Assembly (NCBI GenBank): GCA_037445695.1
Contig: JBBIKA010000007.1
Coordinates: forward strand, 1 to 47,304
Reading direction: 5' to 3'
DNA: 47,304 nucleotides
Source: Chloroflexota bacterium
Lineage (GTDB): Bacteria; Chloroflexota; Anaerolineae; CG2-30-64-16
Below are positions 26,397 to 46,977 of this stretch, piece by piece. The notes beneath the pieces were generated by a model. It had not been told where the DNA came from. It did no database searches and worked only from the letters and a program-made list of their open reading frames with translations. Position 1 is the first letter of the stretch. Each line of letters opens with the position of its first letter. The translations under genes and the position numbers were made by a program.

Positions 26397-27647
26397 TCAA
26401 TCGCCGGTGATCAATTCCAGGAGGGTGCTGCCCAGACGCACCATCACCGTTTTGGGGATGGGCGTAGGGGCATTTTTCTGAAGGCGCGTTTCGCCGATGA
26501 AGGTGCCGTTCTTGCTGAAATCAACCAACGAGAATCCACCGTCGCGGTATCTGATCTCCAGATGTCTGTGCGATACGGCGGGGTCCTCAATCCGAATATC
26601 ACAACTCTGATCCCGGCCGATTACACAAGGGAAACGGGTGATCCGTTTCTCCGTCCCCCGGCCGGGGCCGGGCGATTCAACAATGCGTACGGTGAGCCAG
26701 CCCCGGACGACAGAAGACTCTCCCGGTCGGGTAAGGTCTATCGGCGGACGCCACGGCAACTGACCGGCACGGCCAGATCGGCCGGAGAGAATGATCACCG
26801 TGACAAAAATCGAAAACACGACCAGGATGGCCAAGGCGATATAAGGGTTCTGAGCCAGGGCGGTCGCGATGCGCTGCCATAGGGTGGGCTGAGGAGGCGG
26901 CTTGAGCTTGACTTCATAGGTCGCCTGTGCCTGTTGATCGTCACGGGTATAAAGATTCAAAGTTACTTTATAGGTGCGCTCCTCGGTAGCCTCACGGATG
27001 GCCCTGGGCAACACCGCCACCACTTCTGGGCCACGATACAGCGCTTCCTGGATCGCACCGACCCGTTGACCGGAATCGTCCACCACGAAGCCATCGTACT
27101 TCAACACCGCTGCACCGGCAGGCAAGTTCAGCCTGATGACCAAGACACCAGAAGGATAGTCGGCGTTCACCGACTCGATGCGGAACTCGAAGCGCGGCGG
27201 CGCCGGCGGCAGATGGACGAACTCCTTGCTGGCGAGAATGAATTGCTCGCCCGGGTTGACCACATGACCCTCGGCCGCACGCGGGATCAGATTGCCGCTC
27301 CAATCTACCGCCTGGACCTTGAGCAGGTATTTGCGTTCAGGCTTAAACAAAGCGCCGTTCAGCTCATATGGCCTGGAGCTGAAGCCTCCCAGGTTGATCT
27401 CCGTTTCAGGAATGATCACCGTGCCCGCATCGGCGTCCTCGACGCTGTACAATAGCCGAGAGACACTCCTTGGGTCGTTCACGGTGATCCGGCCGCGATA
27501 GAGATTCCGATCTTGTTCATAGGTGGGTCCGCTGATCAAAACCGTCAAAGACGATGGCCCCTGGGCTACGCCGTGATCTGGAGCAGCCAGGAGCAATACC
27601 AGGGTAAACACAAAGACACCAATCGAAAGCAGGCGATTTGCCCTCAT
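26397..27647 (-). CDS. Signal peptide, extracellular domain, TM and C-terminal FHA domain protein (last gene of the T7SS-like operon)
   Basis: FHA motifs IGRDQSCD...VSHRH...DFSKNGTF; TM YIALAILVVFSIFVTVIIL; GGAG RBS before MRANR. Confidence 0.85.
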   Translation of the reverse strand: MRANRLLSIGVFVFTLVLLLAAPDHGVAQGPSSLTVLISGPTYEQDRNLYRGRITVNDPRSVSRLLYSVEDADAGTVIIPETEINLGGFSSRPYELNGALFKPERKYLLKVQAVDWSGNLIPRAAEGHVVNPGEQFILASKEFVHLPPAPPRFEFRIESVNADYPSGVLVIRLNLPAGAAVLKYDGFVVDDSGQRVGAIQEALYRGPEVVAVLPRAIREATEERTYKVTLNLYTRDDQQAQATYEVKLKPPPQPTLWQRIATALAQNPYIALAILVVFSIFVTVIILSGRSGRAGQLPWRPPIDLTRPGESSVVRGWLTVRIVESPGPGRGTEKRITRFPCVIGRDQSCDIRIEDPAVSHRHLEIRYRDGGFSLVDFSKNGTFIGETRLQKNAPTPIPKTVMVRLGSTLLELITGD

Positions 27648-27666
27648 CGTCGTTGTCTCCGCCCGC

Positions 27667-28482
27667 CTATCCGCCGAGGCTTTGGACCAGCAGATCGCGC
27701 ACGGCTTGAACCGACATGGTCCGCACATGCAGCGGCCCCTTGGGGCCGGCGTCCGCTTGCGGCGCGATCCACCAGATATAACGGCCGTCCTGCAACAAGG
27801 TGAACTCCTGCGTCTGAGCTGGTTGGTTGCCCTGTTGCGTGACGATTTGCAGAGCTGAAACGCGTGGGGAAGCGGCCCAAGCGGCCACCAGCTTGGCAGC
27901 GTCTTCCGCAGGAAGGCCGCTTGTCACCAGAGTGTCGGTGGCAGCCCCGGTGTTGCCGACGCCGGCCAACTGACGGGCATCGGCAAACTCCTGGCGGGGC
28001 ACAAGGAAGTCGAGAACTGTGGCCTGGGTAGCGTCCTTGACCTCACAAAAAGCCAACACCTGTTCTGCTAATTCCCGGCGCGACGGCAACAAGGTGAAGC
28101 GATGCACAACAGGTCCCGGCCGTGCATGTGTCACGACATCGTCTCCGCGCATGTGGCCGAACAACGTGCGCGGCGCTTGTTCTCCTGCCGGCCAATGATA
28201 GACCAGGATAGAGTTTTGGGCGTAGGCACATGTCCCGATCGCGCGCAGCAGTTCGCGGTGAAACAAGAACGCGCCATCAGGTTGGATCTGGGCCAAATTG
28301 CGCGCCAGCAGAGCGCGCCGGGCGACCACCAGGGCAAAGGCCTCTTGCTCAGGGGTCAACGAACCCGACGGCTCGCGTTCCAGGCCCGGGATCGTGGTGG
28401 CGCGCAAAGCATCCAGAACGGCCAGCAATTCCTCGCGCGAGAGAGTGACAGAGAAAAACTGCCGACCAGCATCTTCATTCAT
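27667..28482 (-). CDS. Hypothetical protein, EspG-like putative T7SS chaperone
   Basis: LSREEL...IPGL...ARRALLARNL pattern resembles EspG N-termini; similar to 41884-42678; directly follows a WXG100-fusion gene. Confidence 0.5.
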   Translation of the reverse strand: MNEDAGRQFFSVTLSREELLAVLDALRATTIPGLEREPSGSLTPEQEAFALVVARRALLARNLAQIQPDGAFLFHRELLRAIGTCAYAQNSILVYHWPAGEQAPRTLFGHMRGDDVVTHARPGPVVHRFTLLPSRRELAEQVLAFCEVKDATQATVLDFLVPRQEFADARQLAGVGNTGAATDTLVTSGLPAEDAAKLVAAWAASPRVSALQIVTQQGNQPAQTQEFTLLQDGRYIWWIAPQADAGPKGPLHVRTMSVQAVRDLLVQSLGG

Positions 28483-45143: not shown

Positions 45144-45219
45144 ATCAGGCAAACCCTCCCGGCCCAGGTATCACGATCAGATGAGAGGCCGGGCCAATCG
45201 CGGTGTAACACCCCATCGG

Positions 45220-46977
45220 TCAATCTGCGGGCGGGACCGGCTTCGGCGCGGTTTCCCCGCCGGGGAAAGCGACGGTGAACGGCCGGCCTTCCGATAGCAT
45301 GCGCACGGCGCCCGTCGGCCCCCACAGGCGCACTCCCCACATCAATTGCCGTGCAGACCGGCCGAAAAGCTGCTCTACGATGGCCATATCCACGGAGACG
45401 AGCGTGTCGGTCGAAGCGCCCACTGGGCTGCGGCCATCCCGCAGCCCATCCTGGCCCGCAAGCCAGAAGACGAGTTCGTACTGCTCGCCCGGGCCCAGGG
45501 AGAAGCCGGCCATGTTCTGCCAGGCAAATGTGACGCGACCCTGCAACGTCGTGTTGGCTTCCGGCCACAGTAGAGTGACATCGCCGGCGGTGTTCCCCCT
45601 CCTGGGGGCCGCCGGTGTCAGCGTAGGCGGTGACTTGACGGCCGGGCCGGCAGTGGCCGGCGCCCTGGTCGGCGCTGCGGTCGCGGTCGGAATCGGGGTC
45701 TCAGCCGGCGCCGGGGTAAAGGTGGGGGCCAGGGTCGGCGCAGCAACGGGCCGCGTCAGCACGGCCGCTGAACCCTGACCGCTACCGGCCAGGCTTTGCG
45801 GAGCCGCCGTGGGGCCGGCCGGCGCCTCCGACCCGCCGACCACCACCACCCCGCCACCTTGAGCCGGCTTGGTACGCGGAGACGCAGTCGGCAAGGAGGA
45901 CGCAGAGCGCGACGATGGCGGCTCCGTAGCGGTTTCCATACCCCCACGAGGCGTTGAGGCGCTCGGCGCCCCGCGCTGCCACAGGCTGACCGCCATATAG
46001 CCGGCCGCAGCCAGGGCAACCGCCGCTCCCACCAATCCGAGGCCCCAAAGCCCTCGCCGCGCCGCCGATGACCCTGGCGGCCGCCCAGGAGACCGCCCCC
46101 CTTCCCACGTCATCTGAACGGCATCCGCCTTGGCGCCGACAGCAGCATCCCACGCCGTGCGAAAGCTCAACACATCGGGCCACCGGTCATCCGGTCGCTT
46201 GGCCAAGGCACGCAGCAAGACCGCACCCGCCTTCGGCGGCAAGCCGGCCTTATACCGCCCCGGATCAGGCGCAGGCAACGACAGGTGCGCTTCCTGCAGC
46301 CGACCGGCGGTGTCGGCCCCCGCGAGCCCAGGCTCGCTGCCGGTGAACGGCCGCCGACCCGCCACCATCTCATAGAGCAGCACGCCCAGGCTGTAGATGT
46401 CGGCGGCAGCACCGACCGGCTCGCCCCGTATCTGCTCCGGGCTCATGTACGCCGGCGTGCCCATCGCCAACTCGCTCACACCGGCGCTGCCCAGAGCACG
46501 CGCAATGCCGAAATCGGCAAGCATCGCCCGACCGTCAGGAGTCAAAATAACGTTGGCGGGTTTGAGATCCTGGTGCACGATCCCCTTGCGGTGCGCATAA
46601 TGCAGCGCACCGCACAGATCGTGAAAAATGCGGCTCGCTTCGGCCAGATCGCACGGCCCCGGCCGGGCCTCCAGCAGCTCCCGCAAGGTGGTGCCGGGCA
46701 CGTACTCCATGACGATGAACGCCTGACCGTCCGCCTCCTCCAGACCATAGAGGCGCACGATGCCGGGGTGGTCCAGTCTCTCCAGCGCGGCCGCCTCGTC
46801 CCGAAAGCGCCGGAGCAACTCAGGGTCTGCCGCCAGATGGCCGTGCAACACCTTGATGGCCACCGAGGCCTGGCGTTCCTCATCGAAGGCCAGGTACACA
46901 TCGGCCATGCCCCCGCGACCGATCAGCTTTTGCAACCGGTAGCGCCGACACAACACTGAGCCCTCTTGGACCGTCAT
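45220..46977 (-). CDS. Hanks-type Ser/Thr protein kinase with TM, Pro/Thr linker and extracellular domain
   Basis: IGRGGMADVY, VAIK, HQDLKPAN, DFG, GTPAYMSPEQ, DIYSLG; start MTVQEG. Confidence 0.95.
   Translation of the reverse strand: MTVQEGSVLCRRYRLQKLIGRGGMADVYLAFDEERQASVAIKVLHGHLAADPELLRRFRDEAAALERLDHPGIVRLYGLEEADGQAFIVMEYVPGTTLRELLEARPGPCDLAEASRIFHDLCGALHYAHRKGIVHQDLKPANVILTPDGRAMLADFGIARALGSAGVSELAMGTPAYMSPEQIRGEPVGAAADIYSLGVLLYEMVAGRRPFTGSEPGLAGADTAGRLQEAHLSLPAPDPGRYKAGLPPKAGAVLLRALAKRPDDRWPDVLSFRTAWDAAVGAKADAVQMTWEGGRSPGRPPGSSAARRGLWGLGLVGAAVALAAAGYMAVSLWQRGAPSASTPRGGMETATEPPSSRSASSLPTASPRTKPAQGGGVVVVGGSEAPAGPTAAPQSLAGSGQGSAAVLTRPVAAPTLAPTFTPAPAETPIPTATAAPTRAPATAGPAVKSPPTLTPAAPRRGNTAGDVTLLWPEANTTLQGRVTFAWQNMAGFSLGPGEQYELVFWLAGQDGLRDGRSPVGASTDTLVSVDMAIVEQLFGRSARQLMWGVRLWGPTGAVRMLSEGRPFTVAFPGGETAPKPVPPAD

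Follow-up and report, generated by a model that had tools for sequence, protein, structure and literature searches.

[quoted passage not shown] Garrett, Higginson and Palmer (2024, PMC11217815) describe further types, T7SSc-j, from Bacillota and Actinomycetota; EspG-like chaperones, Ubl and FHA proteins, kinases and phosphatases occur among their components, and Chloroflexota are nowhere mentioned in the paper. [quoted passage not shown]

The window analysed was an entire contig of 47,304 nt from a Chloroflexota MAG (99.2% complete, 356 contigs). A first-pass annotation had placed 15 co-oriented, tightly spaced genes (g01-g15) at 26397-46977, and all 15 ORFs were confirmed there on the minus strand, on which every feature below lies, with neighbouring ORFs overlapping or spaced by at most 124 nt. 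Gene labels were checked by Pfam and NCBIfam scans, two AlphaFold models and Foldseek, and nearly every label held; as the EspG-like and Ubl labels were uncheckable by sequence, structure was used for these. Sequence and structural models together make it probable that these genes specify a protein exporter of the type VII kind, belonging to a Chloroflexota-specific subtype. The ATPase and WXG proteins belonged to their families above curated cut-offs, with g08 and g09 just under, which argues for the T7SS reading, and all five WXG100 matches in a genome-wide profile search lay inside the locus. Its core consisted of four small WXG-like proteins (a-d), a tail-anchored pseudokinase, the ATPase and a cytosolic Ubl-FHA protein. 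This core recurred by synteny in 12 other assemblies, all Chloroflexota MAGs, with each gene present in 9-12 of the 12 loci, so that both the proposed T7SS-type locus in Chloroflexota and the conservation of its gene set were borne out and the set is no chance assembly; clustering found no other family conserved in at least 5 of the 13 loci within ±10 kb. The kinase, FHA-wHTH protein, 2-TM protein, EspG-like protein 1 and membrane FHA protein varied among relatives. The locus had also been called self-contained, which is not demonstrable because the contig ends just past the kinase, 327 nt from that edge of the locus, and which the five variable components also speak against. Nor is the mixture of T7SSa-like and T7SSb-like parts with phospho-signalling unprecedented, as had been supposed: the combination of EspG-like, Ubl, kinase and FHA proteins is already known for T7SSc-j (Garrett et al. 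2024, PMC11217815). What is new here, judging by sequence, is a Chloroflexota T7SS subtype with an ATPase of seven P-loop ATPase domains in place of the usual three.

The ATPase (g11, 2,939 aa, 30463-39282) scored above the cut-offs of the EssC (TIGR03928, 1515 bits, cut-off 778), EccCa (TIGR03924, 1023, cut-off 509) and EccCb (TIGR03925, 864, cut-off 347) models. It matched Pfam FtsK_SpoIIIE in seven stretches (4.3e-165), and its seven Walker A motifs marked seven P-loop domains. Two TMs (residues 35-87) and a DUF (88-467), with no N-terminal FHA domains, were followed by three D1-D2 units, a D3 domain and a helical tail. Unit 1 (residues 468-1184, 35731-37881) joined a D1-type domain (GSTGSGKS, IIIDEF) to a D2-type domain (GASGWGKT, VIDNF); unit 2 (residues 1156-1859, 33706-35817) shared 50% identity with unit 1 and 52% with unit 3 (residues 1833-2517, 31732-33786), and the D3-type domain (GPPVSGKT, LIDNY) with the C-terminal helical tail occupied residues 2518-2939 (30466-31731). 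The protein had been recognised as giant, and its size stood; the cause, a triplicated D1-D2 module, had been missed. All three D1 copies retained Walker A and the D-E of Walker B, and the D2 and D3 types had D-N. Every D1 copy kept D-E in 11/11 giant ATPases, and among the matches listed, 114 of 120 near-length relatives had exactly three D-E motifs and 118 had three full units.

A tree inferred by a quick search from 61 D1-D2 units, with SH-aLRT as the sole support measure, three EssC and three EccC references and no T7SSc-j sequences, recovered units 1, 2 and 3 as each monophyletic across 11 genomes (support 100, 99 and 100), with units 2 and 3 as sisters (99). The giant units formed one group (92) adjoining single-unit Chloroflexota ATPases, and the Chloroflexota ATPase clade (100) fell outside the EssC and EccC references, in keeping with the distinct subtype proposed earlier. 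The single-unit ATPases (~1,510 aa) were collinear with the giant in 72/72 cases, with identities of 38% at the N-terminus, ~50% in the units and 35% in D3. The sequences thus indicate that the giant ATPase grew from TM2-DUF-D1-D2-D3 to TM2-DUF-(D1-D2)x3-D3 via two internal duplications before its carriers diverged. It was found in 10 of 301 sampled Chloroflexota genomes, and a full-length Ubl-FHA gene lay downstream on the same contig in the same 10. The pseudokinase gene directly adjoined the ATPase gene in 11/12 giant and 16/16 single-unit loci, the Ubl-FHA gene lay directly downstream of it in 12/12 and 16/16, and WXG-like genes were present in most single-unit loci. An EspG-like gene was found in none of the 16 single-unit loci and is therefore an accessory rather than a core part.

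The small WXG-like proteins were 'a' (g06, 41495-41851; WXG100 1.1e-13), with a W-x-G turn, 'b' (g07, 41160-41498; WXG100 3.7e-10), in which GALLG replaces WxG, 'c' (g08, 40809-41141), with a W-x-G turn, and the helical-hairpin protein 'd' (g09, 40494-40790). Protein 'c' scored 1.1e-5 (26.1 bits, cut-off 27.3) on WXG100 and 0.013 on Pfam PPE, 'd' scored 1.7e-4 (22.4 bits, cut-off 23.5) on T7SS_ESX_EspC, and each was present in 9/12 related loci. The C-terminal tail of 'd', A[YF]E.GD..G[AS]T[RK]F[YH], was near-invariant in the ortholog alignment and is a candidate targeting signal. The pseudokinase (g10, 39300-40397; Pkinase 5.4e-15) combined an N-terminal 4-Cys ribbon, a Hanks-type kinase fold (PDB profile matches to STK33/PknB, about 1e-15) and a TM lying at the very C-terminal end. 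Its catalytic loop was dead, with HRD..N changed to [HL][FYL][GA]..[SG] in 10/10 orthologs, which retained the VAIK Lys, aC Glu and DLG. The Ubl-FHA label given to g12 (29750-30439; FHA 2.4e-4) was confirmed by an AlphaFold model (pLDDT 88.4, pTM 0.81) with a beta-grasp domain at residues 5-83 and an FHA domain at 99-208, for which Foldseek returned ubiquitin/Ubl chains (TMt 0.76-0.82) and FHA domains (TMt 0.7-0.78); the phosphothreonine-contact residues GR, SRRH and N of the FHA domain were invariant in the alignment. The next protein, g13 (28531-29736; WXG100 1.6e-7, TIGR03930 8.5e-17), continued after its WXG100 domain into a long, disordered, Gly-rich stretch bearing [IV]PxDWLxGV motifs and ended, across 10 orthologs, in a conserved hydrophobic tail with Lys/Arg after it; its TM is C-terminal. 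We presume that this architecture resembles PE_PGRS of T7SSa, and g13 is a candidate surface-anchored cargo.

Two proteins had been labelled EspG-like, of which g14 (27667-28482) upheld the label through structure. It belonged to no Pfam or NCBIfam family, and its AlphaFold model (pLDDT 89.8, pTM 0.86) matched mycobacterial EspG1/3/5 at all of ranks 1-17 among the PDB matches listed (next TM 0.15); the best was 4w4j_B (E 2.8e-13, TMq 0.71, TMt 0.73), giving a TM of 0.71-0.73 to EspG3. The gene occurred in 11/12 giant loci, its product is a candidate cargo chaperone, and in the giant-ATPase sub-lineage the EspG-fold gene adjoined that of the WXG100/Gly-rich/tail-anchored protein. The label was weaker for g05 (41884-42678), which matched no Pfam family. 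Alignment to the g14 profile (hhalign probability 45%, E 2.2e-4, 246 collinear columns) makes it a probable paralogue of g14, and PF14011 occurs in 23% and 11% of the proteins in its top Atlas clusters (score 0.95, with recognition under the mark), which lends slight further weight to EspG-likeness.

It is very unlikely that the locus belongs to an ordinary T7SSa or T7SSb and that the usual membrane partners have their genes in another part of the genome. With the genome in 356 contigs, failure to find a gene does not equal its absence, and S8 peptidases scored 260.5 bits against the mycosin model, close to but below its cut-off of 278.75. Genome-wide profile searches nevertheless gave no match at E <= 0.1 to EccB, YukD, YukC, EsaA or EssA, and nothing above cut-off for EccD (0.047), EccE (0.02), EssB or mycosin, so that the reported lack of canonical partners in the window extends to the rest of the genome; no further conserved gene was common to the thirteen loci. 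The S8 peptidases were rejected as mycosins, being secreted subtilases with a fervidolysin prodomain, malectin and SdrD_B domains outside any T7SS context. The locus resembles T7SSa in the EccC-like N-terminus of its ATPase (two TMs, DUF, no FHA), its EspG fold and its paired WXG-type hairpins, but the Pfam EspG model misses g14 and the Ubl domain sits on a soluble FHA protein rather than on EccD. As in T7SSb, a TM pseudokinase stands beside the ATPase, and Ubl and FHA domains belong to the machine; here, however, a separate protein carries the FHA domain, in which the phosphothreonine-contact residues are retained, and the pseudokinase is a Hanks-type derivative without an outer domain or YukC signature. 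EsaB-like and EssB-like parts had been proposed, and a Ubl protein and a pseudokinase are indeed present, but no sequence relation to Bacillus mycoides EsaB or EssB was detected (hhalign probability 0.3% and 0.2%), and the two are best regarded, on sequence grounds, as analogues and not detectable homologues. Less likely still is a role other than protein export, in which the FtsK-like giant would translocate DNA or act as an NTPase in defence or signalling under kinase/FHA control. The ATPase also matched NACHT, AAA and TraB/HerA models, and the pseudokinase weakly matched the defence-system kinases MAD6 (4.6e-14) and PglW (2.2e-12), far under their cut-offs. The generic P-loop matches of the ATPase arise from Walker regions, whereas the cut-offs of the T7SS-specific ATPase models were exceeded, the closest solved relatives were T. 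curvata EccC (7.5e-79), YukB (6.6e-59) and EccC5 (1.8e-49), and an EspG fold is encoded in the same operon-like array as six WXG100-type genes.

A more serious contender, though still an improbable one, is that the locus is a Chloroflexota instance of T7SSh or T7SSc and its giant ATPase a quirk of the lineage. The five component types shared with T7SSh favour this, as does the best plasmid-borne match of a D1-D2 unit, a Brevibacillus ATPase (35% over 96%), given that Brevibacillus brevis is named as a T7SSc carrier (PMC11217815). A further point in its favour is another Chloroflexota locus, L021, of T7SSc-like appearance, which encodes a vWA protein and an active kinase and in which one match passes the Pfam cut-off for EspG. 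From T7SSh as described there, the locus differs in phylum, in fusing Ubl to an FHA domain apparently able to read phosphothreonine, in having four small WXG-like core genes against one, and in the scanned flanks, where no Tad pilus genes were seen. The DUF and seven P-loops make eight NTPase-like domains against the 'four' stated for all T7SSc-j ATPases. Like T7SSc, the locus has an ATPase lacking FHA domains, a kinase in the membrane, an EspG-like protein (TscG in T7SSc) and phospho-signalling parts, but its ATPase-adjacent kinase is dead, no vWA protein was found in the locus and the window showed no phosphatase; L021 fits that type better. In the tree, whose references were EssC and EccC, the Chloroflexota units grouped in a clade of their own (support 100); the comparison with T7SSh and T7SSc was one of component descriptions.

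In a Chloroflexota-specific exporter, the ATPase would oligomerise in the membrane with the pseudokinase TM, the pseudokinase possibly serving as a scaffold as EssB or TshM does. The Ubl-FHA protein would read phosphothreonine and might dock on the ATPase or pseudokinase, by analogy with EsaB, the Ubl domain of EccD and the FHA domains of EssC. The pairs a/b and c/d could be co-secreted as adaptors, with an ATPase-binding signal in the invariant tail of 'd', and the EspG-fold proteins may hold the long WXG cargos g13 and g03 export-competent. We postulate that three hydrolytic D1 rings, with nucleotide-binding D2 rings between them, drive or gate export, and that the D1 rings may give different cargo classes separate docking sites. 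Against this reading, the conserved membrane proteins are two (ATPase and pseudokinase) for the whole channel, and to our knowledge every solved T7SS has more.

Around this core lay the variable genes. The first, g03 (43220-44314; WXG100 3.2e-10, TIGR03930 9e-18), ended in a glycine-zipper region whose GxxxG run was plain in the sequence (models under cut-off, 0.0019 and 0.022) and whose conservation was confined to L005 among the 12 related loci; it is a candidate cargo and possibly a membrane-active toxin. Comparison of g03 with the Atlas yielded leads only. The adjacent g04 (42675-43268), a small protein with two hydrophobic segments as TMs, probably starts downstream of 43268 and matched no family above cut-off (STM3941_fam 2.2e-6, under it); it may be an immunity or partner protein of g03. 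Both g04 and g05 were found in L005 only, and g03-g04-g05 could form a swappable cassette of Gly-zipper cargo, possibly membrane-depolarising, membrane partner or immunity protein, and chaperone. The membrane Ser/Thr kinase g01 (45220-46977; Pkinase 7.4e-51) looks active from its VAIK, HQD..KPAN and DFG motifs, and its single TM (near residues 310-333) leads through a Pro/Thr-rich linker to a C-terminal extracytoplasmic domain. Such kinases lay within ±10 kb in 6/12 related loci at varying positions. A putative transcription regulator, g02 (44439-45152), joined an FHA domain (1e-13) to an OmpR/EmbR-type winged-helix DNA-binding domain (Trans_reg_C 1.1e-15) and was full-length in 3/12 loci (L003, L005, L012). 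In this genome, g01, g02 and the membrane FHA protein g15 may relay an external signal to transcription and assembly, comparable to PpkA-Fha; type VI secretion, where PpkA, Fha and TagH occur, likewise encodes a membrane Ser/Thr kinase and FHA proteins with its machine, but that machine is a different one and the link from phosphorylation to assembly would hold here by analogy. The g15 protein (26397-27728; FHA 1.2e-16, Yop-YscD_cpl 1.9e-10), whose true start is probably near 27647, consisted of a TM, an extracytoplasmic region of ~230 aa, a second TM and a cytoplasmic FHA domain. It matched the FHA region of TagH (5.8e-15, under cut-off) and was present in 5/12 loci by tblastn and 7/13 by clustering.

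The window was one entire contig (C7, 47,304 bp) of a 4.28 Mb genome (356 contigs, 99.2% complete), and the 15 open reading frames (ORFs) that the first-pass annotation had described as tightly spaced and co-oriented were all on the minus strand and arranged head to tail (26397-46977), with successive gaps or overlaps of at most 124 nt. Pfam and NCBIfam supported an active-looking Ser/Thr kinase (gene g01), an FHA and winged-helix regulator (gene g02), two long WXG100 proteins (genes g03 and g13), four small WXG-type proteins (genes g06 to g09, two passing the Pfam cut-off and two just below it), a kinase-like protein with a C-terminal transmembrane helix (gene g10), a small FHA protein (gene g12) and a membrane FHA protein (gene g15); genes g04, g05 and g14 had no family in either collection. 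[quoted passage not shown]

The large ATPase (gene g11, 2,939 aa) possessed two N-terminal transmembrane helices and passed the curated EssC, EccCa and EccCb models (TIGR03928, 1515 bits against a cut-off of 778; TIGR03924, 1023 against 509; TIGR03925, 864 against 347). [quoted passage not shown] The first-pass annotation had noted the size of this protein and overlooked its most unusual feature, a triplicated motor. Seven Walker A motifs were found, three of the form GxTGSGKS followed by hhhhDE[FY], three of the form GxSGWGKT followed by D-N, and one of a third kind. The protein comprised three D1-D2 units (residues 468-1184, 1156-1859 and 1833-2517) with pairwise identities of 50-52%, followed by a D3-type domain and a helical tail. 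Genome contigs supplied 10 complete relatives, each with the same three units, and D-E was kept in all three D1 copies of 11 out of 11 giant ATPases, including that of the window. Database searches at E <= 1e-10 returned 213 relatives near giant length (2,385-3,196 aa, 52-92% identical). Among the 120 of these that were listed, 118 had three full units, the remaining two being one split hit and one truncated record, and 114 had exactly three D-E motifs. Their source names included Anaerolineae, Caldilineaceae, Ardenticatenaceae, Promineifilaceae, Herpetosiphonaceae and Chloroflexaceae, as well as Ca. Oscillochloris fontis and Ca. Viridilinea halotolerans, and their annotations go no further than FtsK/SpoIIIE-domain or hypothetical protein. 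A sample of 301 Chloroflexota genomes included 10 with open frames of 2,874-2,972 aa; in the remaining 45 that had a match the frames did not exceed 1,581 aa, and no ATPase of intermediate size was found among the matches. Some genomes (G011, G108 and G144) combined a giant T7SS ATPase with one of normal size, encoded on another contig. The giant ATPase most similar to that of the window (77% identity; locus L012, 10001-18881) reads as pieces with a longest frame of 1,524 aa, of which P0121 is one, as a result of a frameshift, stop or assembly error in the record.

To place the units, we built a tree of 61 D1-D2 units (IQ-TREE, LG+G4, quick search, with support as SH-aLRT only), comprising 33 units from 11 giants, 22 random picks from 72 single-unit Chloroflexota proteins and 6 plasmid-borne references, and leaving out the incomplete loci L011 and L012. 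Units 1, 2 and 3 each formed a clade (support 100, 99 and 100), with units 2 and 3 as sisters (99). Since units grouped by position, the triplication arose once, in two steps, before its carriers diverged, and the D1-D2 triplicate predates the divergence of two Chloroflexota classes. Giant units formed a group of their own (92) next to the single-unit Chloroflexota proteins, and all Chloroflexota rows formed one clade (100) outside the EssC and EccC references. We withdrew the view that the ATPase is nearer to EssC than to EccC, as a tree of three clades with an arbitrary root has no say on this. Pairwise ATPase identity was 33-39% to Bacillota and 25-46%, over shorter stretches, to Actinomycetota, and the best solved relative of g11 was an actinobacterial EccC.

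Conservation of the remaining genes was evaluated by tblastn of the 15 window proteins against 12 related genome loci. The ATPase and Ubl-FHA protein (g12) were found in all 12, the pseudokinase (g10) and the second EspG-like protein (g14) in 11 each, with the misses falling at contig ends, and the small WXG proteins c and d in 9 each. Accessories were rarer: the membrane FHA protein occurred in 5 of the 12, the FHA-winged-helix regulator in 3, and the 2-TM protein (g04) and first EspG-like protein (g05) in one (L005). Clustering of ORFs from 13 loci yielded no additional family common to at least five of them. The single-unit ATPases (~1,510 aa) were collinear with the giant form in 72 of 72 cases. 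Of 37 single-unit loci on metagenome contigs, 16 were long enough to judge. In each of these 16 the ATPase was immediately preceded by the pseudokinase (E 1e-90 to 1e-103) and immediately followed by a Ubl-FHA ortholog (E 1e-35 to 1e-47), with WXG-like genes upstream in most. The subtype is therefore wider than its giant form, and a proposed restriction of Ubl-FHA to giant ATPases (10/10 versus none) was dropped in light of the 16 metagenome orthologs. An EspG-like profile matched in none of the 16 judged single-unit loci. Two further D1-D2 modules were gained in the giant lineage, as was a downstream module combining EspG with Gly-rich WXG cargo. The single-unit Ubl-FHA orthologs (L023-L056) were encoded by longer ORFs, of 336-406 aa compared to 229 aa in the window.

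EspG-like genes also adjoined other, more distant normal-size Chloroflexota ATPases. One such locus (L021, G255:C183:26000-41018) encoded a 1,548-aa ATPase, a vWA protein, an active kinase carrying SH3 domains, three EspG-like proteins, of which one exceeded the PF14011 cut-off, and two long WXG proteins, of which one had an alpha/beta-hydrolase match (0.0019). It represents a second kind of Chloroflexota T7SS locus, similar to T7SSc.

Structure models of g14 and g12 were built from alignments of their orthologs in related loci. That of g14 (pLDDT 89.8, pTM 0.86) is predicted to have an EspG fold: Foldseek ranks 1-17 among the PDB matches listed were all mycobacterial EspG1, EspG3 or EspG5, with TM-scores of 0.62-0.72, and the next match beyond rank 17 scored 0.15. 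The best match was 4w4j_B (E 2.8e-13, TM-scores 0.71/0.73) at 14% identity. For g05, alignment to the g14 profile was full-length and weak (probability 45%, E 2.2e-4), and an Atlas lookup gave a weak lead, fewer than half of the members of its nearest clusters carrying the EspG Pfam family. PF14011 matched neither protein at E <= 0.1. The g12 model (pLDDT 88.4) combined an N-terminal beta-grasp domain with an FHA domain and matched ubiquitin or Ubl chains and FHA domains; residues 5-83, aligned to ubiquitin and bacterial Ubl chains at TMt 0.76-0.82, have the EsaB/YukD-type fold. The beta-grasp has no free Gly-Gly end because the FHA domain comes next. The folds guessed in the first-pass annotation were thus firmly borne out by models for g14 and g12, and tentatively, by weak profile alignment, for g05.

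Phosphothreonine-binding FHA domains conserve Gly-Arg, Ser-x-x-His and Asn residues. In g12, G120, R121, S146, R147, R148 and H149 were invariant and N167 occurred in 90% or more of the 13 sequences, making this domain a putative phosphothreonine binder on its residues. The FHA domain of g15 reads GR..SHRH..NGT, and that of g02 has Ala where Arg is expected. Four invariant Cys residues marked the N-terminus of the pseudokinase, and a transmembrane helix its C-terminus; its catalytic loop was dead in 10 of 10 orthologs, with the VAIK Lys, aC Glu, DLG and APE kept, and its solved relatives were Hanks kinases. Complex predictions of Ubl-FHA residues 1-212 with pseudokinase residues 1-330 and with the ATPase DUF region, run without controls, both gave ipSAE 0.00, which speaks against binding no more than for it.

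In orthologs of the long WXG100 protein g13, the WXG100 domain was accompanied by a long low-complexity region that is rich in Gly and bears at least one [IV]PxDWLxGV motif, and by a conserved hydrophobic C-terminal tail followed by Lys/Arg. The other, g03, carries a glycine zipper and is followed by the 2-TM protein and first EspG-like protein; among the 12 related genome loci this trio recurred only in L005, as expected of a swappable cargo cassette. By analogy with TelE and EsxX, the glycine zipper suggests that g03 is possibly a toxin; Atlas lookup of its C-terminal part yielded leads only. The small WXG proteins formed two pairs, each of one W-x-G and one non-W-x-G member, and the tail of protein d was near-invariant (A[YF]E.GD..G[AS]T[RK]F[YH]). 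By analogy with EsxA/EsxB, these proteins may act as adaptors, with the d tail as a signal.

We searched the whole genome in six frames for canonical T7SS partners. For T7SSa, EccB (PF05108) gave no match at E <= 0.1, EccD (PF19053, 0.047) and EccE (PF11203, 0.02) were under cut-off, and the best genome score for mycosin (TIGR03921) was 260.5 bits, under the 278.75 needed. The S8 peptidases on contig C53 considered as mycosin candidates were rejected, as Pfam showed a fervidolysin prodomain, S8, malectin and SdrD_B domains typical of ordinary secreted subtilases; this region (L019, G000:C53:295-7401) encoded two in tandem (~1,050 and ~1,250 aa), just under the mycosin cut-off. A PF14011 match on contig C41 was likewise spurious, lying inside a 2,777-aa SdrD_B-repeat protein. 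For T7SSb, models for EsaA, EssA, EssB/YukC and EsaB/YukD (TIGR03929, PF10661, PF10140 and PF08817) had no genome match at E <= 0.1, PF08817 in g12 included. The pseudokinase has the kinase-like domain and transmembrane helix of EssB/YukC without its extracellular domain or a PF10140 match, and no EssB was among its best 60 PDB matches. The locus further differs from T7SSb in that hhalign found no relation of the Ubl protein and pseudokinase to Bacillus mycoides EsaB and EssB (probabilities 0.3% and 0.2%). As the assembly is fragmented, the missing partners are best described as not found rather than absent.

Work by Sutcliffe from 2011 reportedly belongs with the predictions of ESX systems in Chloroflexi. 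Such predictions have long been published, but only as one-line mentions (PMC10765036, PMC3482391, PMC4010439 and PMC3935865), and our literature searches returned no described locus of this type and no EssC/EccC with extra modules. The closest described systems are those in Garrett, Higginson and Palmer 2024 (PMC11217815), where T7SSc-j of Bacillota and Actinomycetota often include kinases, phosphatases, FHA and Ubl proteins, with EspG-like proteins in T7SSc, h and i; Chloroflexota are not mentioned in that paper. As judged by architecture and fold alone, the core here has exactly the five component types of T7SSh: WXG100, Ubl, FHA-less ATPase, EspG-like, and kinase-like with one C-terminal transmembrane helix. 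T7SS ATPases usually have three ATPase domains after a DUF, and the same paper gives "four predicted NTPase domains" for every subtype surveyed, T7SSh included, whereas g11 has a DUF and seven P-loop domains. Tad pilus genes, neighbours of T7SSh in that account, were not found among the flanking ORFs scanned. The first-pass annotation was right in kind to propose a distinct, conserved and uncharacterised Chloroflexota subtype without canonical partners, none of which was found genome-wide; the unusual mix of parts is present, and its rarity was overstated given that T7SSc-j already combine such parts.

The locus widens recently recognised T7SS diversity past Bacillota and Actinomycetota, placing putative EspG-fold chaperones in a third phylum, and its conserved core is very small, consisting of the ATPase, the pseudokinase, Ubl-FHA and the WXG proteins, and serves the question of what constitutes a minimal T7SS. 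In the accepted model, a single hydrolytic D1 is controlled by D2, D3 and substrate binding. A natural, conserved D1-D2 triplicate is therefore a ready-made experiment on module cross-talk and on the length of the cytoplasmic stack. The boldest reading, which we consider rather unlikely as a whole, is of a separate T7SS class in Chloroflexota whose channel would be formed solely by the EccC-like ATPase and the tail-anchored pseudokinase. Its motor, lengthened to eight stacked rings, would contain three D1 rings that are active independently of one another, every D1-D2 module would serve its own class of WXG cargo, and phosphothreonine would switch on assembly through the Ubl-FHA adaptor. The main job of such a system would be to place Gly-rich tail-anchored proteins onto the surface of these filamentous bacteria, not to deliver toxins.

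No RNA sequencing run containing 39283-44400 was listed, and ten DNA runs contained a fraction of 0.06-0.46 of the words sampled from this stretch, none reaching half. Upstream of the kinase, an open frame with Thr/Pro-rich repeats (PTPTATSTPTAT...; 46991-47304, minus strand) is truncated where the contig ends, and the locus may thus extend past the window. At the other end, a peptidase S58 gene outside the conserved set (DmpA-type, 4.8e-117; 25216-26400, minus strand) may be co-transcribed, because its longest ORF shares 4 nt with the end of the membrane FHA gene. The flanks were otherwise ordinary, encoding solute-binding proteins, GlnE, CcmF, MoxR/DUF58 proteins, a LacI regulator and an Opp-type ABC transporter, along with a 942-aa ORF without a Pfam family at E <= 1e-5 (7107-9935, minus strand). 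On the plus strand (10143-14070), a MoxR-type AAA ATPase (AAA_3, 1.6e-63) was followed by a DUF58 protein and family-less small ORFs, and looks like an ordinary MoxR/DUF58 cluster.
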